Of a DNA stretch of 64,000 nt, positions 2 through 43,910 are shown piece after piece. The DNA lies in NCBI GenBank assembly GCA_963802335.1, contig CAWDIE010000009.1, positions 24,961-88,960 of the forward strand. Reading direction: 5' to 3'. This DNA is from an uncultured Planctomycetota bacterium (lineage in GTDB: Bacteria > Planctomycetota > PLA2 > JAEUHO01). The notes beneath the pieces were generated by a model. The model did not search any database and was not told the DNA's origin. It worked only from the letters and a program-made list of their open reading frames with translations. A program made the translations under genes and the position numbers. How positions within the stretch are numbered: the stretch's first letter is position 1; every line of letters begins with the position of its first letter.

Positions 2-1499
2 CCGCCGCGCGTTCGCGTGCCGGACCTCCGGGGGCGCGACCTCGTGACGGCGAGGCTTGCCCTGCTCCGGGCCGGCTTGCAGGGACGTCTCATCCACCGC
101 ATGGCGCCGGGGCAGCCGCTGCGGCGGGTCGTCGCGCAGACGCCGCGGCGCGGGACACCGCTCACGCTGGGGGACGTCGTGACGCTGGTCGTCCCGTCGG
201 AGGCCAGCGTGCCTGCGCTGCAGGGCCTCTCGGCGCCGGATGCCGTCCGGCGGCTCGAGGACGCCGGCTTCGAGGCCGAACCGCAGGGGCCCCCGGCCGC
301 GGGCCCGACCCGCGTTCGTGGAGCAGAGCTTCGGGCCGGGTACGCCGCTCGCCCGCGGCACTCGCGTCGCCTTCACCTACGTCGCGCGGGGTGGCCCGGC
401 GCTCGTTCGCGTACCGCAGGTGGCGACCCTGCGCCTCGACCTGGCCCAGGCCGAGCTCGCCGCGGCGGGTCTCGGCTACCGCGTCGGCGGGCCGGCCTTC
501 GGCCTCGGTCAGCGGCTGGTCGTTGCGCAGACCCCTGCGGCAGGGACCGCGCTGCCGCGGGGCGCCGAGGTTCACCTCCAGACCCGCTGGTCCGGTGGCG
601 GCGCGGGGCTGGGTGGGTTTCCGGGGCTCCGGCCGCCGTCCGCACCCGCCTCCGTGAAGGTGCCGGACCTGCGCGGACTGACCTTCAGCCGAGCGCTGCG
701 CAGCGTGACCGAGCGGGGGCTCCAGATCGACGGCCGCCACCTGCGCCATCCCGAGATGCGAGTCGTTGCGCAGGATCCGCCGCCGCATCGGCGCGTACCC
801 CGAGGCACGCGGATCCGCGTCGAGCTGGAGCGCCCGGATCGGCCGCCCGCGCCGAGTGGCACGATCGTGCCGCGACTCGTCGGGCACGAAGCCCAGGCGG
901 CGGCCCAGCTCCTCGCCCAACGGGGTCTGCGTGTCCGCTACGTGGACCAGCGCCCCGGCGGGGGACCGGCGACGGTCCGCCGACAGCATCCCGCGGTCGG
1001 GCGTCGTGTGCCCCCGAACAGCATCGTGACCCTGGCGCTCGAGTACCGCAACGCGCCCCCCGCCATGGAAGCCGTTCCGGTGCCCTCCGTCGTGGGCATG
1101 GAGGCACAAGCCGCGATGAAGCGGCTGAAGGCGGCGGGCCTGCAGGGGCGGATCGTGTCGTCTGGGACGCGCGGCAAGATCGTCCTGCGTCAGGCCCATG
1201 CGGGCGAGCAGGTGCCCCGGGGGACGACCATCCAGCTTCTCGTCGGTCGGGACCCGCGGGCCAAGCCGCACAAGAAGCCGCACGGCTCCGGCCAAGGGCA
1301 AGACGCCTCGCTGAGTCGCGGCTGGCCTACGGTGCCTGGCCTACGGTGCCAGGCACCCGTCCGCCAACTTCCACCATCAACACGCACCTGGATCAGGCGG
1401 ACACCACCACCAGGTCCCGGTCGGGAGCACGAAGGCGGGTTGCGCTTGGACCGCTTTGCCTTCGGGTATGGGCCGTACGCCAAGTTGGCGACATCGTGA
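2..1499 (+). pseudogene. PASTA-repeat protein (six PASTA modules). The 5' end lies outside the window and the reading frame breaks near 281-314.
   Basis: Frame 2 (nt 2 to about 300) and frame 3 (about 315-1499) both translate into repeated ~65-aa modules of the form VP.L.G....A...L...GL...(Q.P..G..L..G..V.L). The second module (VPALQGLSAPDAVRRLEDAGFEAEP... / ...FVEQSFGPGTPLARGTRVAFTYV) is split between the two frames. The last ~60 codons run through REP repeats. Confidence 0.6.
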
Positions 1500-1558
1500 C
1501 TGGCACCTTCCTTCGAGTTGGCGGCATGGTGACTGGCACCGTCCTGCTGGCACCGTCC
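1327..1558. repeat. REP-like repeat cluster A: an inverted unit at 1340-1372, direct units at 1482-1506 and 1515-1544, plus fragments.
   Basis: CCTACGGTGCCAGGCACCCGTCCGCCAACTTCC, and on the other strand (A/G)AGTTGGCG-N5-GTGACTGGCACC. The same core recurs at 8 loci in the window. Confidence 0.85.
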
Positions 1559-1614
1559 TCGTGTCTTGCGGATATGCTCGGTCTGCAGCAGGTGTCCAAG
1601 GGGAGGGCGGCGTC

Positions 1615-2779: not shown

Positions 2780-5700
2780 TCACGCCTCCGCGTGTTCGAA
2801 CTGGGCCGCCAGCGCGTCCACCTGGTCTTCCGACGGGAGCTTTCGCGCCACGTACGCCTCGGCCGCAGGGCGCCCGAAGAGCTTGAACACGCCGGGCGTG
2901 AGCAGCACGTCCAGGAGCGTCGTCGAGACGAGCCCGCCGACGATCACCGACGCCACCGGGTAGAGCAGCTCGCGTCCGGGTTGATCGGGAGAGGCCACCA
3001 AGGGGATCAAGGCGATCCCGCTGGTGAGCGCCGTCATCAGCACCGGCACGATGCGCTCGCGGCCGGCACGAACGAGCATCTCCGTCCCGAAGGGCACGCC
3101 CTCCTCCTTCATCAAGTGCAGGTAGTGGTCGAGGAGCAGGATGCCGTTTCTCGATGCGATGCCGCCCAGCGACACGAAGCCGACGAGGGTCGCGATGCTC
3201 AGGGTCTGGTCCGTCCACAGCAGGAACGCCACCGCGCCGATGAAGGCCGCCGGGATGTTCAAGAGCACCTGGATCGCGAGGTTGATCGAGCGGAAGTGGA
3301 GCGCCAGCACCAGGAACATGATCGCCAGCGACACGAACGACAGCAGGAACACCGTGCGGGCGGCGGACTCCTGGGCCTCGAACTGGCCGCCCAGGCGGAT
3401 CGCGTAGCCGGCGGGGAGCTGCTGACGCATCGGCTCCAGCGCCACCTGCACGTCGGCCACCACCTCGCCGAGCGAGCGGCCGGTCACGTTGTGGTGGACG
3501 ATCATGCGGCGCGAGACGTCTTCGCGGTTGACCGCGTTGGGCGTCGGCTCCAGGCGAATGTCCGCCACGTCGCCGAGCTTCACCCAGGTGTCGAGCGGGG
3601 TCGCGAGCAAGAGGTTTCGCAGATCGTCGAGGCTCTCGCGGTCCTCCTGCCGGAGGCGCACCACGATCGGGTAGGCCATCGCGCCGTCGAGGAAGCGCCC
3701 CACGTGCGAGCCTTCCAGCGCGTGCTCGATCGTGCGGGTCACGTCGCCGATCGTGAGACCCAGTCGGGCGAGGCGCTCGCGGTCGGGATCGACGCGCACC
3801 TGATCGATGAGCACCTGCGACTCGACCATGAGGTCGGTGACGCCGTCCACGTCCTCGATCGTGTGCTCCACCTCCTCGGCGAGGCGCCGGAGCGTCGGCA
3901 GGTCCTCGCCGAAGATCTTGATCGCCACCTGGGCCTGGACGCCCGAGAGCATCGCGGACAGCAGGTGGGCCAGGGGCTGCTCCACCGAGAGCGGCACGCC
4001 GGGGAAGGCCTCGCCCGCCGCCTCGCGGATGTCGCCGATGATCTCGTCGCGCGAGCGATTCGAGTCTTCGTCGAACGACACGATCATCTCCGTGATGTTC
4101 ACGCCCATCGCGTGCGCATCGCCCTCGGCCCGTCCCGTGCGTCGGGCGAGCGCGGCGACGCCCTCGATGGGGGCCACCACGGCCTCCAGCCGCTTGCCGT
4201 AGTCGTCCGAGACATCGATGCTCGTGTCCGGCGGCAGGACCAGGTTGATCTGCGCCGAGCCCTCGTTGAAGGGGGGGAGGAACTCGGTGCCGCGCGTCGC
4301 AAGCGCCGCCACGCCCACCACCACGAGGGAACCGGTGAGTGTTGCGATCGCGATGGGGTACGTGGCACTGAGGCGGATGCCCTTCTCGGCGAGCCACTGG
4401 AGGCCGCGTACCAGGGCGCCCTCCTTGCCCTTGTGGCGCGCGGCCGTCGCCGGCAGGAGCAGGGAGCAGAGCACCGGCGTCACCGTGACCGCCACCAAGA
4501 GCGAGGCCACGATGCTGATGATGTAAGCGAGCCCGATCGGGGCGAAGAGTCTGCCCTCCATCCCGCTCATGGCGAAGAGGGGGATGTAGACCGTGATCAC
4601 GACCAGCGTGCCGATCAGGATGGGCTGGCGCACCTCGGCCGAGGCGCGGAACACGATCGACAGCGTCGACTGTGGATGCTCGCGTTTGGCGTTCTGTTTG
4701 AGTCGTCGGAAGACGTTCTCCACGTCCACGATCGCGTCATCCACCAGCGCGCCGATCGCCACGGCAAGGCCGCCGAGCGTCATCGTGTTGATCGAGATCC
4801 CGAACACGTGGAACACGATCGTCGTGATGGCGAGGGAGAGGGGAATCGCCGTCAAGGTGATGAACGTGGTCCGCAGGTTCAGCAGGAAGATCACCAGGAC
4901 GATCACCACGAGGAACGCGCCGTCGCGGACGGCTTCCTCCACGTTGTCCACGGCGCGGTTGATGAAGTCCGCCTGCCGATAGAGGCCGGGCACGAGCTCG
5001 ACGTCGTCGGGCAGGGTGGGGGCGATGGCGGCCAGCTCGGCGTCCACGCGGGACGTCAGGTCCAGGGTGTCCACGCCCGGCTGCTTCGTCACGATCAGCA
5101 GGACGCCCTTGGCGGCGTTCACGCCGGCATCGCCCACGCGGATCGCCGCGGGGCCCATCGTGACGTCGCCCACGTCCGCCATCCGTACCGGGCGTGTCCC
5201 CCTCGGCTTCACGACGGCATCGGCCAGGTCGGCGGCGTTGCGGGCGCGGCCGGTCACCGTGACCATCGGCGCGTTGGGGCCGTGGCGGAGCAGCCCGCCC
5301 GAGGCGTTCTCGTTCGCCTCGGCCAGTCCCTCGACGACGTCGGCCACGCCGACCTCGTGCGCGCGGAGCTTGTCCGCATCGAGCAGCGCCTGCACCTCCA
5401 AGGGCGCGCCGCCCGTGAGGATGACCGTGGCGATGCCGGGGACGCTCAGCAGACGGAGGCGGATGTCGCGCTCGGCGATCGTGCGCAGGCGCGCCGGATC
5501 GACTTCGCCTTCCTTGGCCCTCAGCCCCACGATCTGGACCTGCCCCATGATGCTCGTCATGGGGGCCATCTCGGGCACGACGTGGTCCGGGAGCTGGCGC
5601 CGGGCGAGCTGCAGCTTCTCCTGCACGATCTGGCGGTTGCGGTAGGGATCGGTGCCCCAGTCGAACTCGGCGGTCACGATCGACATGCCCATCGAGCTCG

Positions 5701-5953
5701 AAGACCGGACGCGCGTCACGCCCGTGGCGCCGTTCAGCGCCCGCTCGAGCGGCAGCGTGATCTGCCGCTCGATCTCCTCGGGGATCATGCCGTGCGCCTC
5801 GGTCAGGATGCTGACCGTGGGCCGGTTCAGGTCAGGCAGCACGTCGATCGGTAGCTGCTGGGCGGAGATGGCGCCCCACGCCCCGAGGGCGAGAGCCGCC
5901 AGGACCACGAGCAGTCGGTGCCCCAAGCACCACGCGATGATTCGATTGAGCAT
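2780..5953 (-). CDS. Heavy-metal efflux RND permease, CusA/CzcA family.
   Basis: 1057 aa. The N-terminus MLNRIIAWCL...LPIDVLPDLNRPTVSILTEAHGM.PEEIE..IT.PLE is typical of HME-RND pumps, with a 12-TM architecture. Confidence 0.93.
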   Translation of the reverse strand: MLNRIIAWCLGHRLLVVLAALALGAWGAISAQQLPIDVLPDLNRPTVSILTEAHGMIPEEIERQITLPLERALNGATGVTRVRSSSSMGMSIVTAEFDWGTDPYRNRQIVQEKLQLARRQLPDHVVPEMAPMTSIMGQVQIVGLRAKEGEVDPARLRTIAERDIRLRLLSVPGIATVILTGGAPLEVQALLDADKLRAHEVGVADVVEGLAEANENASGGLLRHGPNAPMVTVTGRARNAADLADAVVKPRGTRPVRMADVGDVTMGPAAIRVGDAGVNAAKGVLLIVTKQPGVDTLDLTSRVDAELAAIAPTLPDDVELVPGLYRQADFINRAVDNVEEAVRDGAFLVVIVLVIFLLNLRTTFITLTAIPLSLAITTIVFHVFGISINTMTLGGLAVAIGALVDDAIVDVENVFRRLKQNAKREHPQSTLSIVFRASAEVRQPILIGTLVVITVYIPLFAMSGMEGRLFAPIGLAYIISIVASLLVAVTVTPVLCSLLLPATAARHKGKEGALVRGLQWLAEKGIRLSATYPIAIATLTGSLVVVGVAALATRGTEFLPPFNEGSAQINLVLPPDTSIDVSDDYGKRLEAVVAPIEGVAALARRTGRAEGDAHAMGVNITEMIVSFDEDSNRSRDEIIGDIREAAGEAFPGVPLSVEQPLAHLLSAMLSGVQAQVAIKIFGEDLPTLRRLAEEVEHTIEDVDGVTDLMVESQVLIDQVRVDPDRERLARLGLTIGDVTRTIEHALEGSHVGRFLDGAMAYPIVVRLRQEDRESLDDLRNLLLATPLDTWVKLGDVADIRLEPTPNAVNREDVSRRMIVHHNVTGRSLGEVVADVQVALEPMRQQLPAGYAIRLGGQFEAQESAARTVFLLSFVSLAIMFLVLALHFRSINLAIQVLLNIPAAFIGAVAFLLWTDQTLSIATLVGFVSLGGIASRNGILLLDHYLHLMKEEGVPFGTEMLVRAGRERIVPVLMTALTSGIALIPLVASPDQPGRELLYPVASVIVGGLVSTTLLDVLLTPGVFKLFGRPAAEAYVARKLPSEDQVDALAAQFEHAEA

Positions 5954-5998
5954 TGGCTCGGTCTCCCGGCCGCACGCGGCCGTTCTCGTGGCGTTGGG

Positions 5999-7822
5999 CT
6001 AGTGGTGGCTGTGTCCGTGGCCGGCGTCGGGTTCGCCGCGGCCCTGCTGCAAGGCGAGATGGAGCGCGAACGCGCCGTGGACGACGACCTCCTGGCCCTC
6101 GAGCAGGGCGCCGTCGGCCGCGATCACGACCACGTTCTTCGTGTCGAGCTCGACGTGGACCGGCACGGGGTAGAAGTGCATCCCGTGGTGGTGGTCGTCG
6201 TCGTGGTCGTCGTGATCGTCGTGATCGTCCTCGGCATGATCTTCGTCGTGATCTTCGTCGTGGTCGTCGTGTTCGTCGTGACCCTCGTGGTCGTGATCGT
6301 GGTCTTCTTCGAGGACGTAGACGATCCGGTCCGGCCCGTCGCGGACGATCGCGTCCACCGGCAGCACGAAGCGGCCGGGCATCGTCTCGAGCGGGACGCG
6401 GACGAGGAACTCCGTCCCCGCCTGCAGCGACCACGAACGCCGCCCGCTCTCCTGCAGGAGGACGTGGTTGTCGATCTCGGCGTAGGCGACGGTGCCTCGC
6501 TCCTCGTGGGAGGCGAGGCGCCGGAAGTGGACGTTCGGCAGATCGGGGGCGGACCTCCGCAGGACGGGGACGGCCTGGCAGGAGAGGTGCTCCTGCACCG
6601 CGCGACGCACGTGCTCGATCTCGCCGCCGATCGGCTCGAGCCTCAGCCAGAGCCGGCGCGGGTCGTAGAGCTCGGCCACGGGATCGCCGGGCTGGAGGTG
6701 AAGGCCCACGCGGGCGCGCAGGCGCTCCAGGTCCCAGTGCTCGCCCCCCGTGTCCGGGGCGCGGATCACGAGATCGGGGTCGAGCCCGCCGAGCTTCGCG
6801 ATCATGAGGACGTTCTCGATGGAGTAGCCCTCGAGCAGCAACGCGGCCACTTCGCGGAAGCGCTCGGCGGCACGCGGCTGCTGCGAAACGAGCTCGAGCA
6901 GCCCGGGGCGGACCAGTCCCTGCATGCTCAGCTCGGCCAGGAGCAGCACGGGCCAGGGACGGACGCGCTCCTCCGCGGGGAGCTGGGCGAGGATCTTCTC
7001 CTCGAGGTCGCCCCACGCACCGTGCTTCTTCAGGGTCCGGCGCCAGAGGTCGAGCAGCGGCGGGTGCTCGCCGCCGGCGGCTGCGTGCGCGATCTCTCCC
7101 TCATCGAGGCCGTGGTGGTGGAGCTCGCTCTCGGCGTTCGTCGCGCGCCGCTCGGCGCGGGAGCGCTCGTAGCGGAGCTCGCGCAGGCGGCTGGCGAAGA
7201 GCTCGGGCATGTTCGACGCGGTGCCTTCGCCCAGCTTCTCGAGACGCGCGATCTCTCGGTTGGCGATGTCGAGGTCCGTGCGGGCGGAGCGAAGCGCGGC
7301 GAGGCTCTCGATCAAGTGCTTGCGCTCGGGCAGCACGATGCCCATCGCCGTGGACTGCTCCCCGACGGCGATGGGGTCGCGCACGAGCGACACGAGCGGC
7401 GCATCTGCGTCGACGACTTGCCCGCTCTCGACGTCGACCCGTCGCACGATCCCGCCCATCGGCGTCACCACGGTGCGCCGGTTCTCGGGTCGATCCACGA
7501 GCACGGCGCGGACGTCGACCGTCCGCACGTAGTCCTGGAGCCGGGCGTGCTCGATCACGACGCCGAGGGTCTTCAGCGTCTGCTCGCTGAGCTCGGCGTG
7601 ATCCTCGTCCTCGTGGTCGTCGTGTTCGTGATCGTGATCGTCGGCATGCTCGTCGTCGTGATCGTGGTCGTCATCCGCATGGTCGTCATGATCGTGATCG
7701 TCGTGCGCATGTTCGTCGTGATCGTCCATCGGCGCGACGTGGCTGCTCAGCTGCCAGCCGGCGAGGAGTCCGAGCACGGTGAGCAGGATGCCCAGGGCAA
7801 TGGTCGAGAGAGAGCGGAGCAT
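5999..7822 (-). CDS. Efflux RND periplasmic adaptor (CusB/CzcB-like) with His/Asp-rich tracts.
   Basis: Sits between the OMF and RND genes with an ATGA overlap to the OMF gene. N-terminal TM helix, adaptor-like beta-barrel segments (VPVDAIV...VYV), and H/D runs near both termini. Confidence 0.8.
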   Translation of the reverse strand: MLRSLSTIALGILLTVLGLLAGWQLSSHVAPMDDHDEHAHDDHDHDDHADDDHDHDDEHADDHDHEHDDHEDEDHAELSEQTLKTLGVVIEHARLQDYVRTVDVRAVLVDRPENRRTVVTPMGGIVRRVDVESGQVVDADAPLVSLVRDPIAVGEQSTAMGIVLPERKHLIESLAALRSARTDLDIANREIARLEKLGEGTASNMPELFASRLRELRYERSRAERRATNAESELHHHGLDEGEIAHAAAGGEHPPLLDLWRRTLKKHGAWGDLEEKILAQLPAEERVRPWPVLLLAELSMQGLVRPGLLELVSQQPRAAERFREVAALLLEGYSIENVLMIAKLGGLDPDLVIRAPDTGGEHWDLERLRARVGLHLQPGDPVAELYDPRRLWLRLEPIGGEIEHVRRAVQEHLSCQAVPVLRRSAPDLPNVHFRRLASHEERGTVAYAEIDNHVLLQESGRRSWSLQAGTEFLVRVPLETMPGRFVLPVDAIVRDGPDRIVYVLEEDHDHDHEGHDEHDDHDEDHDEDHAEDDHDDHDDHDDDHHHGMHFYPVPVHVELDTKNVVVIAADGALLEGQEVVVHGAFALHLALQQGRGEPDAGHGHSHH

Positions 7823-14378: not shown

Positions 14379-14414
14379 AGCAGTACGGTGCCAGTCACCC
14401 GTCCGCCATCTTCC
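14379..14414. repeat. REP-like unit B (single, inverted orientation).
   Basis: AGCAGTACGGTGCCAGTCACCCGTCCGCCATCTTCC. Confidence 0.85.
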
Positions 14415-17426: not shown

Positions 17427-17564
17427 GGTGCCGGGAGGAGGGTGCCAGTCACCCGTCCGCCCGCGTCGCCGTGCGGTGGACCCGGTTCCTCGAGTTGGCG
17501 AAAGCGTGACTGGCACCGTACTTCGACTCCTCGAGTTGGCGAAAGCGTGACTGGCACCGTACTT
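17427..17564. repeat. REPIN-like composite C: an inverted arm at 17441-17461 plus two identical direct units at 17492-17521 and 17533-17562.
   Basis: A 38-bp perfect direct repeat TCCTCGAGTTGGCGAAAGCGTGACTGGCACCGTACTT with a period of 41 bp. The left arm is GGTGCCAGTCACCCGTCCGCC. Confidence 0.9.
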
Positions 17565-18927: not shown

Positions 18928-18977
18928 CCGTCGACGTGCACCCCGTTCGACACCAAGCCGCTGCGTGCGTGCCTAGG

Positions 18978-19094
18978 GACGGTGCCAGCCACCCGTCCAC
19001 CAGCGCCGCCTTGCGGAGTACCCGGTCCCCCGAGTTGGCGTACGCGTGACTGGCACCGTACTGCTAGTTGGCGTAAGCGTGACTGGCACCGTAC
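18978..19094. repeat. REPIN-like composite D, with the same architecture as composite C.
   Basis: Left arm GACGGTGCCAGCCACCCGTCCACC, a conserved spacer (..TTGCGGAGTACCCGGTCCCC), and units at 19032-19061 and 19065-19094. Confidence 0.9.
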
Positions 19095-19099
19095 TGGCG

Positions 19100-36627: not shown

Positions 36628-37002
36628 GTGCACCATGCGCGCATGGACGACTCCCTGGCTCGACTGCAGGCCCTGGCGGTCCACTTTCGTGACGAGCGTG
36701 ACTGGAAACAGTTCCACCGCCTGAAGGACCTGGCCTTGGGGCTCACGGCCGAGGCGGGCGAACTCGCCGAGCTCTTCCTCTGGAAGACGGACGAGGAACT
36801 CGCCTTGTTGAGGGAGGACTCGCCCGAGCGCCATCGCCTGGGCGAAGAGCTCGCCGACATCTTGATGTACCTGCTCTACCTCGCCGACGCGTCGGGCCTG
36901 GATCTGGCTGAGGCCTGCCGGGCGAAGATCCAGACGAACGGCTTGAAGTACCCCGTCGAGAAGGCCCGGGGAACGGCGCGCAAGTACACCGAGCTCGAGT
37001 AG
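36628..37002 (+). CDS. MazG-like nucleotide pyrophosphohydrolase.
   Basis: RDWKQFH..KDLAL.L..EAGEL.E.F.W......LGEELADILMYLL.LA...G.DL......K...N..KYP. Confidence 0.8.
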   Translation: MHHARMDDSLARLQALAVHFRDERDWKQFHRLKDLALGLTAEAGELAELFLWKTDEELALLREDSPERHRLGEELADILMYLLYLADASGLDLAEACRAKIQTNGLKYPVEKARGTARKYTELE

Positions 37003-37004
37003 CC

Positions 37005-37070
37005 CTACGGTGCCAGGCACGTTATCGCCAACTTCCAGTACGGTGCCAGGCACGCTTTCGCCAACTTCGG
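37005..37070. repeat. REP-like units E: two tandem units in inverted orientation, immediately upstream of the RAYT gene.
   Basis: CTACGGTGCCAGGCACGTTATCGCCAACTTCC followed by AGTACGGTGCCAGGCACGCTTTCGCCAACTTCGG. Confidence 0.9.
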
Positions 37071-37118
37071 CGTGACCGACCGGCTCCCCCAAGCGACTGA
37101 ACGCTGAAGGGAGTCCGC

Positions 37119-38090
37119 ATGACACGCCAGCATCGCTGGGACGAGCCCGGCCTCAAGCTCCACATCACGAACCGGGGGGGAGCGAAGCGCACGCTCATGG
37201 AAGTCCGGCGCGACTTCCGTACCTTCCTTGCAGCGCTTGCCTGTTCCGTGCGTCGCGGAGAAATCCAGGTTCTCGCGTACGCGCTCATGATGAACCACTT
37301 CCACCTCTTCGTGCAGAGCCTGGGGGCGCTGTCCGAGGCCATGCAGCGGATCCAGACGGCGTACGTGCGGTACTTCAATCGGTCGCGACGTCGGGACAGT
37401 CCCCTGCTTCGAGGGCGGTTCTTCTCCAAGCCGGTGATGACGTACGCCTACGAGGGCAACCTCCTCTTCTACATCCACGAGAACCCGGTCGGCGCGCGTC
37501 TCGTCGCACGCGCCGAAGACTGGGAGTGGAGTAGTGCCTACCACTTCGCCCGAGATGCCCTGCCTCCGTGGTTGACTCCCGACGTGTGGGAGCGTCACCG
37601 CGGGATCTGGGCTTCGAAAATGCGTGATAAGAGCGCGTCCCCGGAGCGCATCGAGCTGATCGAGCGACGGCTGATCATGCCGGCCCATGGCGAGGATCCT
37701 CTCGACACGCTTCTCTCCGACGTGCCGGAGCGTGTTTGGAGCTGGATGGTCCGCAAGGCGGCGCTGGCGGACGGCACGCGTCCGGGAATGCCGGCCGCCG
37801 GGATCAAAGCGGTCCGACGTGTGCTGGGCGAGGCCGCGGAGAGGCAACTTTCCCTCGTCGTTCACCTCGAAGGCTCGCGCGCGTATCCCTGCGGACGGCT
37901 GCTGGAGGCGGCCTTGCTGAGGGATGTGGCAGGCGCCACCTACACCGAGGTCGGACGCCTGATGGGGCAGAGCGCGGCAACGTGCAAGCGATTGCACCAG
38001 CTCCACGGCCGCGCGATTCAGGAGGATGAGGCGTACAGGCGCTTGGCCCAGGAGTTGGTCATGGCGTGCGTGCGGCCGCTGCGGGTGTGA
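37119..38090 (+). CDS. REP-associated tyrosine transposase (RAYT; IS200/IS605-like Y1 HUH transposase family).
   Basis: LHITNRG..., HUH motif MNHFHLFVQ, then YVRYFNRS.RR.SPLLRGRFFSKPV and the catalytic-Tyr motif FYIHENPV.ARLV...EDWEWSS. Flanked by REP units of opposite orientation. Confidence 0.85.
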   Translation: MTRQHRWDEPGLKLHITNRGGAKRTLMEVRRDFRTFLAALACSVRRGEIQVLAYALMMNHFHLFVQSLGALSEAMQRIQTAYVRYFNRSRRRDSPLLRGRFFSKPVMTYAYEGNLLFYIHENPVGARLVARAEDWEWSSAYHFARDALPPWLTPDVWERHRGIWASKMRDKSASPERIELIERRLIMPAHGEDPLDTLLSDVPERVWSWMVRKAALADGTRPGMPAAGIKAVRRVLGEAAERQLSLVVHLEGSRAYPCGRLLEAALLRDVAGATYTEVGRLMGQSAATCKRLHQLHGRAIQEDEAYRRLAQELVMACVRPLRV

Positions 38091-38101
38091 CGGCGGACGA
38101 T

Positions 38102-38156
38102 GGCGGACGGGTGACGGGCACCGACCGTACGCAGCGCCGGATATCCGGCGCTGCGT
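38102..38156. repeat. REP-like unit F (38102-38130, direct orientation) abutting a 28-bp perfect palindrome (38129-38156).
   Basis: GGCGGACGGGTGACGGGCACCGACCGTAC, then ACGCAGCGCCGGATATCCGGCGCTGCGT. Confidence 0.85.
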
Positions 38157-39047: not shown

Positions 39048-39121
39048 CACGGCCGAACCGAGAACGAGCCCAGCCGGGCCCTGCTCCGGGGCTCGGGGAC
39101 TCACCGGCCGCGGACCGTGAG

Positions 39122-39164
39122 GTGGCGGAAAGGTGACTGGCACCGTATTGGTGTTGCACCGTAC
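39122..39164. repeat. REP-like unit G plus a fragment.
   Basis: GTGGCGGAAAGGTGACTGGCACCGTAT, with GTTGCACCGTAC following. Confidence 0.85.
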
Positions 39165-39345
39165 TAAGGCCCCGAGCGAGGGGGGAATCTCCGTCCGGTC
39201 GCCTGGGCCAGGCCCGCTGAACCCAGTGGGAAATGAGTCGTGCGGGCCCGGTGGACCTGTACCGGGTGCGGCCGTCCCTGCGCAGGGATGCGGGGGCGAG
39301 GTCCGCCGGCGGACGCGGGCTCGTCTTGCCCAGGAGGTGCCCGCC

Positions 39346-42271: not shown

Positions 42272-42354
42272 GCCTCGTGTCCTGCGCGCGACCCCGGGGA
42301 GTCGGGCACCTCCCCCCCCTCGCATGCGCGTCCACGGGATGGACGTTGTCGTGC

Positions 42355-42375
42355 GAGTTGGCGGACCGGTGCCTG
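42355..42375. repeat. Left part of a REP unit interrupted by the IS element.
   Basis: GAGTTGGCGGACCGGTGCCTG. The remainder, GCACCGTAC, resumes at 43867. Confidence 0.8.
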
Positions 42376-42473
42376 ATGACCTAAACGGGCAATCCCTCCG
42401 GGCGGGGAACGATGTCCCCGATCGGGTTCAGAGTCCCAGTTGAGACGCAACTCAACACCCGAAGGGATGCCCG

Positions 42474-43571
42474 ATGAGGAAACTCGTACGACCGGTGCAG
42501 AAAGTCAACACAGCGTCGGTGGGTTTGGATGTCCACCAGAACGTCATCGTCTACGCCCGCCTGGACCGCCATGGCAACGAGGCCGGCAAGGGGGCCATTC
42601 GTTCCCGGCCGGAGGCCCTGACGAAGTTCCTGGCCAGCCTGGAGGAGCCCACCCATGTGGCGTTCGAGGCCGGCGGCTCGACGTTCTGGGTCTACGACCT
42701 ACTCGTTGACGAACTGGGTGCGGACTTCGTTCACGTGGCCCAACCCAAGAAGATCCGTGCCATCGCCAACAGCACACAGAAGAATGACAGCAACGATGCG
42801 TGGTGGCTGGCCTACCTCACCTACGAGGGCCGACTGCCCGAGTGCTTCATCCCCACGGGGAAGTTGCGCGAACTGCGGATCGCGGTTCGTGAGCGATTCG
42901 CCCTCGTGCAGCAGATCAGCAGGGTGAAGACGCGCATCAAGTCGCACCTCCGGCAGTTGGGGATCTCGCTGCCGGTCCGGAAGGTGGACTCGATCCGCGG
43001 CTGGAACTTCTTGGTGGACCTGGCCGAAGAGCGCTCGGACGTGCAGGGGATGGCGGTGATGCAGTCCCTGGTGCTACTCGAGTACCTACTGGAAGCCCGC
43101 GAGGCGTGGGAGGAGACCATCGACGACTTGGCCAAGTCCTTCCCAGAAGTCCACACGCTCCAAACCGAGATGCCGGGCATTGGCTGCCGGCTCGCCGCCG
43201 TGATCATCGCCGAGCTCGGGCCCGTGGACCGCTTCACGTCAGCCAAGGCCATGGGGCGCTTTGCTGGCCTCACGCCATCGGATCGAAGCTCCGCGGGGAA
43301 GACCCGCTATGGGGTGATCACGAGGGAGGGAAGCGAGCACCTGCGCTGGGCCCTCACCCAGGCTGCCATGGCATGCACGAGAGCACGATCCGGGCCAGGT
43401 CTTGCCGCGGGGAACTGGATCCGAGCTAAGCAGCGACGCATGGGAAGCAAGGGCAAGGCACGGGTGGCGGCCGCTCGGAAGATCACGGAGTCGATCTGGC
43501 GTCTGTTCCAATGGGGTGAGTGCTTCGACCCGGCCAAGCCCTTCGGTGGGATGCCCGCAGGCGCCCGCTAA
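42474..43571 (+). CDS. IS110-family DEDD transposase/recombinase.
   Basis: N-terminal VGLDVHQ...VAFEAGG...NDSNDAWWLA (RuvC-like DEDD). C-terminal MPGIGCRLAAVIIAELGPVDRFTSAKAMGRFAGLTPSDRSSAGK. Confidence 0.92.
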   Translation: MRKLVRPVQKVNTASVGLDVHQNVIVYARLDRHGNEAGKGAIRSRPEALTKFLASLEEPTHVAFEAGGSTFWVYDLLVDELGADFVHVAQPKKIRAIANSTQKNDSNDAWWLAYLTYEGRLPECFIPTGKLRELRIAVRERFALVQQISRVKTRIKSHLRQLGISLPVRKVDSIRGWNFLVDLAEERSDVQGMAVMQSLVLLEYLLEAREAWEETIDDLAKSFPEVHTLQTEMPGIGCRLAAVIIAELGPVDRFTSAKAMGRFAGLTPSDRSSAGKTRYGVITREGSEHLRWALTQAAMACTRARSGPGLAAGNWIRAKQRRMGSKGKARVAAARKITESIWRLFQWGECFDPAKPFGGMPAGAR

Positions 43572-43864
43572 GACAGCAGAGGTTTTGAGGAGAGATCGGA
43601 TAGGCGAGAGGGAGTCAGTTTCGGAAGGCAGCTGAGCCCGAGGTGCCAGTGGCGGCGCAAGCCGAGGGTCTTGGCCTCCAAGCCACGTGCCCCAAGCCGT
43701 GTGCCTGATTGGGAAGCTGCCCTCCGAAATCGACAGCATGGGACACGGAGCCCGAAGAGATGATTGGCTACGAGCTGCCTCCCTCCCGCCTGTCCACTAG
43801 GAGGGCCATGGCGTAGAAACTAGAAACCAGAGCTGGGGCTTGACTCGGATAGCCCGTTTAGAGA
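43572..43864 (+). ncRNA. Candidate bridge/seek RNA encoded in the 3' non-coding arm of the IS.
   Basis: A 15-bp stem (one mismatch), 43619-43633 paired with 43715-43729, encloses GGTGCCAG (43642-43649) and GTGCCTGAT (43701-43709). AGAGATGAT (43756-43764) equals the predicted circle junction. No transcription evidence is available. Confidence 0.35.
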
Positions 43865-43910
43865 TGGCACCGTACTCGAGTTGGCGGACTGGTGACTGGC
43901 ACCGTACTGC
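43864..43910. repeat. REP-like units H: the right part of the interrupted unit plus one intact direct unit (43878-43907).
   Basis: ..GCACCGTACTC followed by GAGTTGGCGGACTGGTGACTGGCACCGTAC. Confidence 0.85.

Follow-up and report, generated by a model that had tools for sequence, protein, structure and literature searches.

A stretch of 64,000 nucleotides from an uncultured Planctomycetota bacterium (GenBank assembly GCA_963802335.1, contig CAWDIE010000009.1, positions 24,961 to 88,960; here called the window, meaning the whole stretch that was analysed) carries a gene for a relative of the REP-associated tyrosine transposases (RAYTs; REP, repetitive extragenic palindrome), bracketed by short inverted repeats. 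We conclude that gene and repeat genuinely belong together, as an undescribed variety of a familiar type of system; REP/RAYT systems are already known in Planctomycetes. Our preferred explanation, which we consider probable, is that the locus at 37006-38127 is an element of the TIRtron or REPtron type, in which a RAYT-like nuclease-ligase with an added helix-turn-helix (HTH) domain is bounded by inverted units of ~30 nt and mobilises such units in trans. Outward-facing repeats and a terminal motif conserved across the protein family tie the gene to the repeat, as do gene-less mini-elements and the dispersal of the unit in the window; that the unit was spread by this protein, rather than by some other process, is what we infer. 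Positions of the features are collected in Table 1.

An HUH/Y1 protein with a family-specific C-terminal domain

The open reading frame (ORF) of the RAYT-like gene starts with an ATG at 37119, preceded at 37106-37113 by a Shine-Dalgarno sequence, GAAGGGAG, that provides a good ribosome-binding site. A sequence-only reading of this DNA had taken the product for a RAYT-like protein with an HUH motif and a catalytic tyrosine and without a tnpB partner, and on both counts it proved correct. The 323-aa protein contains the motifs N-H60-F-H62, Y118-IHE-N122-P (YIHENPV) and W-S-S139, and residues H60, H62, Y118, N122 and S139, together with part of a C-terminal RKAxLADGTxPG motif, are invariant in an alignment of 46 homologues; the search for a TnpB partner beside the gene found none. 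The tyrosine motif reads YIHENP in the window protein and YIDxNP in the family. Throughout the 46 homologues the HUH motif is accompanied by an SS motif and by a catalytic tyrosine in the context Y-x-x-x-N-P, which is the signature of class 2 TnpA-Y1 proteins, including the RAYTs (PMC6006769). The invariance of the HUH and tyrosine residues indicates that the nuclease chemistry is under selection.

Profile and structure comparisons lead to the same family. The N-terminal 145 residues match NCBIfam REP_Tyr_transpos (NF047646; E 1.1e-13, 51.3 bits) and the N-terminal part matches Pfam Y1_Tnp (PF01797; 22.7 bits), a model that is matched by all 46 family members with E values up to 0.05. The best PDB match of the family profile is E. 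coli TnpA-REP (4ER8; E 0.0018, over aa 40-141), which emerged only from the profile search, a PDB search with the single sequence having returned nothing relevant. TnpA-REP is also the top Foldseek match (4er8_A; E 1.4e-5, TM 0.73 normalised to the target) of an AlphaFold model of the 323-aa protein (pLDDT 87, pTM 0.84), followed by IS608 and ISDra2 TnpA structures. By alignment and predicted structure, this is a RAYT-fold HUH/Y1 protein whose catalytic residues are intact and which is presumably catalytic.

The C-terminal domain contains the conserved motif W209..RKAaLADGT220 and ends in an HTH resembling sigma70 region 4 (about aa 258-302), with helices in the AlphaFold model at 258-269, 275-282 and 286-302. 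Sigma70_r4_2 is matched by 10 of the 46 members, the C-terminal part of some others matching HTH_38, Sigma70_r4 or HTH_23, and sigma-E region 4 and the DnaA C-terminal HTH domain appear as weak profile matches. When the C-terminal half was used as a query against 1.84 billion proteins, it retrieved 416 cluster representatives, and the matches lay nearly always at residues ~170-325 of ~330-aa proteins; the domain is therefore specific to the RAYT-like family. Full-length relatives (5.8 billion proteins searched) are ~315-350 aa long and at best only 49% identical, and all those with a named organism come from Planctomycetota metagenome-assembled genomes (MAGs); their JGI label is 'REP element-mobilizing transposase RayT'.

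One metatranscriptome contains two contigs of 151 nt that match the gene with 100% identity, at 37151-37301 and at 37328-37478, with carry-over of DNA as a possible source. Short metagenome contigs with unrelated flanks show matches of at least 90% to 37743-37777, the coding DNA of the best-conserved C-terminal motif (WMVRKAALADGT); they probably stem from other family members in the same salt-marsh samples.

Outward-facing repeats flank the gene in the window and at orthologous loci

Two upstream units (37006-37068) are direct tandem copies, 93% identical with a period of 33, that end ~49 nt before the ATG. Their number and inverted orientation are as the sequence-only reading had given them; the REP label that it attached to them needs correction, as the folding of single units does not exceed that of shuffles. 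The direct unit and the 28-bp perfect palindrome that it had placed downstream were found at 38093-38127 and 38129-38156. This downstream unit begins 3 nt past the stop codon, differs by a central T>G change and a 3-nt insertion, and is 74% complementary to the upstream unit over 31 nt, making an inverted pair around the gene; it also aligns with the B units of the mini-elements described below.

Orthologous loci, about 75 in all, were assembled from an exact-protein look-up (L119-L128) and a metagenome scan (L129-L196). An inverted repeat across the gene with a score of at least 14 is present at 40 of the 45 loci that have both flanks, compared with maxima of 9-15 in shuffled flanks (20 per locus), and about 35 of these 40 are left once duplicate loci are removed. 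Inverted units also flank the gene at L119, L121, L122, L126, L127 and L128. On the plus strand, the upstream copy at orthologues reads (A/G)TAC(G/C)G... and the downstream copy, often 0-60 nt from the stop codon, ends ...C(C/G)GTA(C/T). A strict version of the motif, facing outward, is present in 30 of the 60 upstream flanks and in 25 of the 53 downstream ones, figures that are too low because the strict pattern overlooks variants, the alignment-free inverted-repeat test being the better measure; the strict motif faces inward in 4 upstream and 3 downstream flanks, and at a distance from the gene it has a background of 0.06 per kb. The pairing of gene and repeat proposed from the window alone was thereby upheld: orthologous RAYT loci were checked for absence of flanking repeats, and the repeats are present and face outward. 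Relatives of the gene in about 70 other genomes, for the most part planctomycete, are bracketed in like manner.

The consensus of 80 distinct family units is ..gaAtTG-N-CCTGG-C(A/T)C-(C/G)GTA(C/T). Its CCTGG centre, which was not imposed by the search, is conserved at 56, 67, 57, 77 and 59 of the 80 units, position by position, and the terminal tetranucleotide is GTAC in 49 and GTAT in 31. Across proteins that are by now only 36-49% identical, this terminal motif has hardly changed. Besides the window, 6 of 16 long loci have dispersed copies at a distance from the gene. A check for multiple identical, IS200-like copies of the gene found one copy in the window, with no second copy detected, and no case of two gene copies at one locus among the loci examined; identical copies of protein P0097, from 13 contigs, share one housekeeping context.

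Several of these loci have features of their own. At L127 (10001-11155), the 384-aa protein P0087 has a C-terminal extension containing ...CCPGTVR..., which by the genetic code would correspond to CCTGGCACCGTAC of the unit; the extension thus resembles read-through from the gene into the repeat downstream more than genuine protein. At L169, a near-perfect palindrome of ~109 nt lies on both sides of the RAYT homologue (about 4818-4915 and 6015-6112) and consists of two inverted units (GTACCGAACCCGACCC...) around a GC-rich centre. The gene beside the RAYT homologue at L142 (85-1520), compared with window 42372-43792, has ~68% DNA identity to the gene at 42444-43571, which sits ~4.3 kb downstream of the RAYT-like gene; this likeness hints at a loosely conserved neighbourhood.

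The palindrome at 38129-38156 is the only element tested here that folds clearly better than its shuffles (z = -3.05). It was considered as a second repeat family and discarded, being unique in the 64-kb window. Contigs from two different runs have loose ends at its edges, GTCCAGAGA before 38133 and TCTCTGGAC after 38152; combined, the two ends would set the inner part, AGCGCCGGATATCCGGCGCT, in another outer stem, and the palindrome may thus be a member of a second repeat family, one that is truly palindromic and located outside the window.

Table 1. Positions and strands of the gene, its domains and the repeat units in the window
Feature	Positions	Strand	Basis
RAYT-like gene, 323 aa	37119..38090	+	ORF; NCBIfam, Pfam, AlphaFold/Foldseek matches
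N-terminal HUH/Y1 catalytic domain, aa 4-145	37128..37553	+	invariant alignment columns; 4ER8 profile match
C-terminal family-specific domain, aa 151-323	37569..38087	+	alignment; HTH matches; cluster search
Upstream unit 1, type A, GTAG end away from gene	37006..37035	-	repeat core and profile
Upstream unit 2, type A (AGTTGGCGAAAGC-GTGCCTGGCACCGTAC), left terminal repeat	37036..37068	-	repeat core, profile, inverted-repeat search
Downstream degenerate unit, type B (GATGGCGGACGG-GTGACGGGCACCGACCGTAC), right terminal repeat	38093..38127	+	nhmmer E 5.6e-4
28-bp perfect palindrome, 14+14, adjoining GTAC end of downstream unit	38129..38156	.	folding z -3.05
Mini-element, B(-)/26-nt spacer/A(+)A(+)	17436..17563	-	repeat core, profile, alignment to RAYT locus ends
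Second mini-element, same layout (B(-), ~26-nt spacer, A(+)A(+))	18977..19096	-	profile, alignment to RAYT ends
Third composite: B(-) 1342-1371, ~110-nt spacer, A-like(+) 1481-1512 and 1514-1545, partial tails	1328..1559	-	repeat core, profile
Solo unit, type B, divergent intergenic region	14381..14413	-	repeat core, profile, ORF overlap
Solo unit and partial tail repeat	39119..39165	+	ORF, repeat core, profile
Partial tail (GATGGCACCGTAC), then full unit	43865..43909	+	repeat core, profile
Weak truncated unit (GAGTTGGCGGACCGGTGCCTGA...)	42354..42375	+	nhmmer E 0.01

Dispersed units and gene-less mini-elements in the window

Counts of unit abundance cover the 64-kb window. The 16-mer GTGMCTGGCACCGTAC, with at most one mismatch, has 11 matches against 0.00 expected, and the 11-mer core has 16 strand-hits against 0.18 expected, giving 13 units; a 34-nt profile of the unit (nhmmer) finds 13 strong and 3 weak copies as well as partial tails, GGCACCGTAC. 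The earlier tally of at least 14 units at 8 loci agrees with these figures (13 units by the core or 16 by the profile, at 8 loci and one weak one, 42354-42375). The unit is about 33 nt long and comes in two subtypes, type A, AGTTGGCG-(A/T)AAGC-GTGACTGGCACCGTAC, and type B, (A/G)NTGGCGGACGG-GTG(A/C)CTGGCACCGTAC; two units in the window end in GTAG.

Two mini-elements, 17436-17563 and 18977-19096, combine both subtypes in one arrangement. When they are reverse-complemented, the A-A pair with ~25 nt beyond it aligns to the upstream flank of the RAYT-like gene and the B unit aligns to the downstream flank, and the mini-elements therefore resemble the RAYT locus minus its 1-kb gene. The GTAC ends face outward in the mini-elements and the RAYT locus alike. 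Judged by these alignments, the mini-elements look like non-autonomous derivatives that have kept both ends. A third composite (1328-1559), of the same layout with a longer spacer, overlaps the 3' tail of a PASTA ORF, 240-1499.

Though generous ORF calls cover 86% of the window, 12 of the 16 units lie outside any ORF, and the others are at ORF ends. The claim that units avoid gene bodies thus holds for most of them, and its single exception (1327-1558) is not the only one: besides 1342-1545, in the PASTA ORF tail and under an over-extended start, the units at 39119-39149 (methyltransferase stop codon) and 43877-43909 (under an over-extended start) also overlap ORFs. The neighbours of the RAYT-like gene are a MazG-like gene (36628-37002) and an S-adenosylmethionine-dependent methyltransferase gene ending at 39136. 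The TGA of the latter falls inside a unit (..AGG TGA CTGGCAC..), and the repeat therefore provides the methyltransferase stop codon. The last ~55 codons of the PASTA ORF read through the repeat cluster at 1327-1499 (...GWPTVPGLRCQAPV...), and the PASTA gene seems to have had its original 3' end replaced or lengthened by inserted repeats.

Terminal repeats rather than palindromic REPs

Within the 64-kb window, the span over which they were counted, the units show the short (20-40 nt), many-copy, extragenic pattern of REPs; in sequence and folding they differ from canonical REPs. The variant GTGCCAGGCAC, which the sequence-only reading had singled out as an 11-bp perfect palindrome, is indeed palindromic (5+1+5) and is unable to form a hairpin alone, and GTGACTGGCAC, the variant of the majority, lacks the palindrome. 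The five central pairs to which GTGCCTGGCAC owes its palindrome show complementarity only slightly more often than in shuffles. A conserved tetranucleotide had likewise been compared to the GTAG head of enterobacterial REPs; the end is conserved, and its form in the 80 family units is GTAC or GTAT, not the canonical GT[AG]G foot. Placement of the core in the loop of species-specific hairpins was rejected as a general rule, outer stems or adjacent palindromes being found in some species and their position not being conserved. From their sequences, the units appear to act as terminal inverted repeats and parts of gene-less mini-elements, not as canonical palindromic REPs.

The repeat in other genomes and in metagenomes

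Among the matches listed (one genome per species), the exact 16-mer occurs in many Planctomycetota species, including Engelhardtia mirabilis Pla133, and in several Planctomycetota genomes it is found at multiple loci, in inverted pairs 65-81 bp apart and in arrays. The listed matches in other phyla are mostly singletons, which agrees with the few hundred that chance is estimated to produce in 596 Gb. The Planctomycetota MAG BC3.89 (JAWKSY010000002.1) has, at 199-675 of locus L017, six head-to-tail copies with a 76-nt period, all with the exact GTGACTGGCACCGTAC core, and after them a single inverted copy; elsewhere its genome has many inverted pairs 65-81 bp apart. Clusters of GGTGCCTGGCACC(GTAC) are also present in an Anaerolineaceae MAG (L104, ~5150-5960) and a Steroidobacteraceae MAG (L036, ~6226-6290), and may reflect either a motif family that extends beyond Planctomycetota or mis-binned contigs.

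Sequence near-identical to the window was found in salt-marsh and sediment metagenomes, where some contigs join window-like units to flanks absent from the window, indicating further copies. Contig ends often fall at unit copies. The joints 37066/38102, 37067/39123 and 38097/39120 were considered as candidates for excision or insertion and rejected: all link repeat-unit positions, two of the loose ends match a further copy, that at the 17.4-kb locus of the window, and the contigs are of low depth.

Relation to known systems

The system resembles TIRYT/TIRtron elements (TnpA-Y1 subclass 2.1) most closely, an assignment made by motifs and not by the published subclass hidden Markov models. In TIRtrons, terminal inverted repeats with GGGGWSAS lie on either side of the TIRYT gene (Di Nocera et al. 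2013, PMC3733652). The proteins of subclass 2.1 (median 238 aa) have NH[YF]H and SS motifs and a C-terminal HTH (Quentin et al. 2018, PMC6006769); the subclass corresponds to the TIRYTs (PMC3733652) and to Bertels' Group 1, and no REP-like sequences are reported nearby (PMC6006769), strong repeat association being confined to RAYT Groups 2 and 3 (Bertels et al. 2017, PMC5581495). The window protein shares the NH[YF]H HuH motif, the SS motif and the C-terminal HTH extension, terminal inverted repeats flank its gene instead of REP hairpins, and in both systems the inverted repeats become repeat families in only some genomes. It differs in its terminal sequence (...CCTGGCACCGTAC, not GGGGWSAS), in its length (323 aa versus the median of 238), in a C-terminal domain specific to its family, and in two key motifs, L-L-R-G and YIHENP standing in place of W[EQ]/FQ and Y[IV]HLNP/YIELNP. 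Moreover, whereas subclass 2.1 is reported to be without REP-like sequences, the window family is nearly always flanked by repeats, which form a dense dispersed family in this genome.

With the E. coli TnpA-REP/REPtron system (RAYT group 2, TnpA-Y1 subclass 2.2, 4ER8), the locus has in common the HUH/Y1 fold, the Y-x-x-x-N-P and SS motifs, and a single-copy gene bracketed by inverted short repeats of which further copies are scattered in intergenic spaces; in each system the flanking units are of two subtypes (A/B here, Y/Z2 in E. coli). The window protein, however, is twice as long as E. coli TnpA-REP (323 aa, against 150-190 aa for classical RAYTs), has a C-terminal HTH domain and does not conserve the W-Q guide-region residues, and its units lack the stable hairpin of E. 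coli REPs, end in GTAC/GTAT instead of the GTAG foot, and are often in direct tandem. The mini-elements, in turn, recall REPINs (Bertels and Rainey 2011, PMC3116915) and miniature inverted-repeat transposable elements (MITEs) in having inverted end-units around a short spacer, in being non-coding and intergenic, and in being presumably mobilised in trans by a single-copy gene. Their arms are two different locus ends (A A and B), unlike the two copies of one REP hairpin in a REPIN; this is as in a deletion-derived MITE, with one arm duplicated.

The sequence-only reading had suggested that the system may be undescribed. This is right for the family and its motif, since a search of the available literature found neither the motif strings nor a description of the family, and too broad for the phylum: REPs (GTAG-20/GTAG-21 in Rhodopirellula baltica, and in two Planctomyces species) and RAYT/TIRYT genes are known there (PMC3733652). 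Those repeats are also short, dispersed and found with tyrosine-transposase genes, but they are GTAG-tagged stem-loops, whereas the window motif is GTAC-ended with a CCTGG centre.

Proposed mechanism and alternative explanations

If the locus is a TIRtron/REPtron-type element, the gene is bracketed by outward GTAC ends, 5'-GTACGGTGCCAGG...gene...CC(T/G)GGCACC..GTAC-3', and the protein would most likely recognise the terminal motif CCTGG-C(A/T)C-(C/G)GTA(C/T), cutting and rejoining a single strand at the GTAC end, or beside it, through Tyr118. Acting in trans, it would mobilise or duplicate the gene-less derivatives (mini-elements, solo and tandem units) while the gene itself would stay single copy. 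Tandem copies and partial tails before full units (e.g. 43865-43909) would fit insertion beside an existing GTAC end, and possible roles of the HTH domain are binding of the motif in duplex form or targeting of the enzyme. The cleavage and mobilisation steps are proposed by analogy with the chemistry of IS608 and ISDra2 TnpA and of E. coli TnpA-REP (PMC6006769).

Several observations count against such an element. The window protein scores under the curated cut-offs of both family models (51.3 versus 80 bits for NCBIfam, 22.7 versus 23 for Pfam), and in a profile alignment the W-Q residues near the GTAG guide in E. coli TnpA-REP are replaced, the position reading L-L-R-G. To our knowledge, all characterised Y1 enzymes use hairpin substrates; single units here fold no better than shuffles (z of -1.8 to +0.8 for single and double units), and hairpin pairing is barely enriched, all five central pairs occurring in only 12 of the 80 family units. 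The metagenome joints are read as cross-matches between repeat copies and not as excisions. Finally, in 9 of the 16 long orthologous loci the units are found only beside the gene, where they could serve the gene itself, for example as HTH operators.

This last observation leads to an alternative in which the flanking repeats are cis-regulatory, the HTH domain binding CCTGG...CGTAC boxes for autoregulation, with dispersal by slippage or recombination or as a regulon. It would account for the presence of an HTH domain and for a motif kept in sequence rather than structure, as expected of a double-stranded binding site, and the tandem arrays, with periods of 27-76 nt, could stem from slippage. 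It does not account for the invariant HUH and tyrosine residues, nor for repeats that lie on both sides of the gene, even past the stop codon, and always face outward, and both-end mini-elements at three separate intergenic sites are the mark of a mobile non-autonomous derivative; we regard it as rather unlikely. A regulatory role of another kind, in which the units are host signals (sigma-54 -24/-12 promoters of the form TGGCAC-N5-TTGC, terminators or a small RNA) and lie near the RAYT-like gene by coincidence, is suggested by the TGGCAC within the unit, by four units that continue ...CGTACTGCT, and by the intergenic placement. Yet the units are found on either strand and also in tandem, they do not fold, they match no Rfam family and no tRNA, and dozens of genomes have the same motif beside the orthologous gene, so that we give this explanation almost no credence. 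The sigma-54 promoter was rejected as a candidate, the GG-to-GC spacing being one base short and the canonical pattern having 1 match against 2.7 expected, as were known RNA families and tRNA-derived elements, none of which matched.

The locus might also be an ordinary autonomous insertion sequence of the IS200/IS605 type, the repeats being its ends and decayed copies. The protein does belong to the Y1_Tnp superfamily, sharing catalytic superfamily and fold with the TnpA of IS608 and ISDra2, and the 1.1-kb unit is bracketed by inverted ends. Its signature, however, is Y-x-x-x-N-P and not the Y-x-x-x-Q of IS200/IS605 (PMC6006769), the gene is present once in the window and once per locus elsewhere, protein P0097 keeps to its single context in 13 contigs, and TnpB is absent beside the gene. 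IS200/IS605 elements have asymmetric subterminal hairpins and no terminal inverted repeats (PMC6006769), contrary to the ends found here, and we consider this origin very unlikely.

Implications

Among Y1 HUH proteins, the RAYT-like ones with a C-terminal HTH make up the second largest group, and cognate repeats were reported to be absent from them. A broader proposal, plausible and somewhat doubtful, is that the window family, with at least 400 clusters at 50% identity, represents a TnpA-Y1 subclass that has so far escaped classification and has its centre in Planctomycetota; in it, an HTH-fused nuclease would act on a hairpin-poor motif, CCTGG-CAC-CGTAC, and give rise to deletion-derived mini-elements. 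If this is true, it would add a third mode beside the hairpin-guided IS200/IS605 and REP/RAYT systems, and would explain why long HTH-bearing RAYT relatives seemed to be without cognate repeats.

For the annotation of planctomycete MAGs, the repeats matter in that they extend or end ORFs, as in the PASTA tail, the methyltransferase stop and the apparently false C-terminal extension of P0087. For the substrate and role of the HTH-bearing RAYT relatives, the family offers a deeply conserved candidate terminal motif of ~20 nt, a gene-plus-ends architecture across dozens of genomes, and gene-less mini-elements in this genome, which together make the question of enzyme and substrate directly testable.

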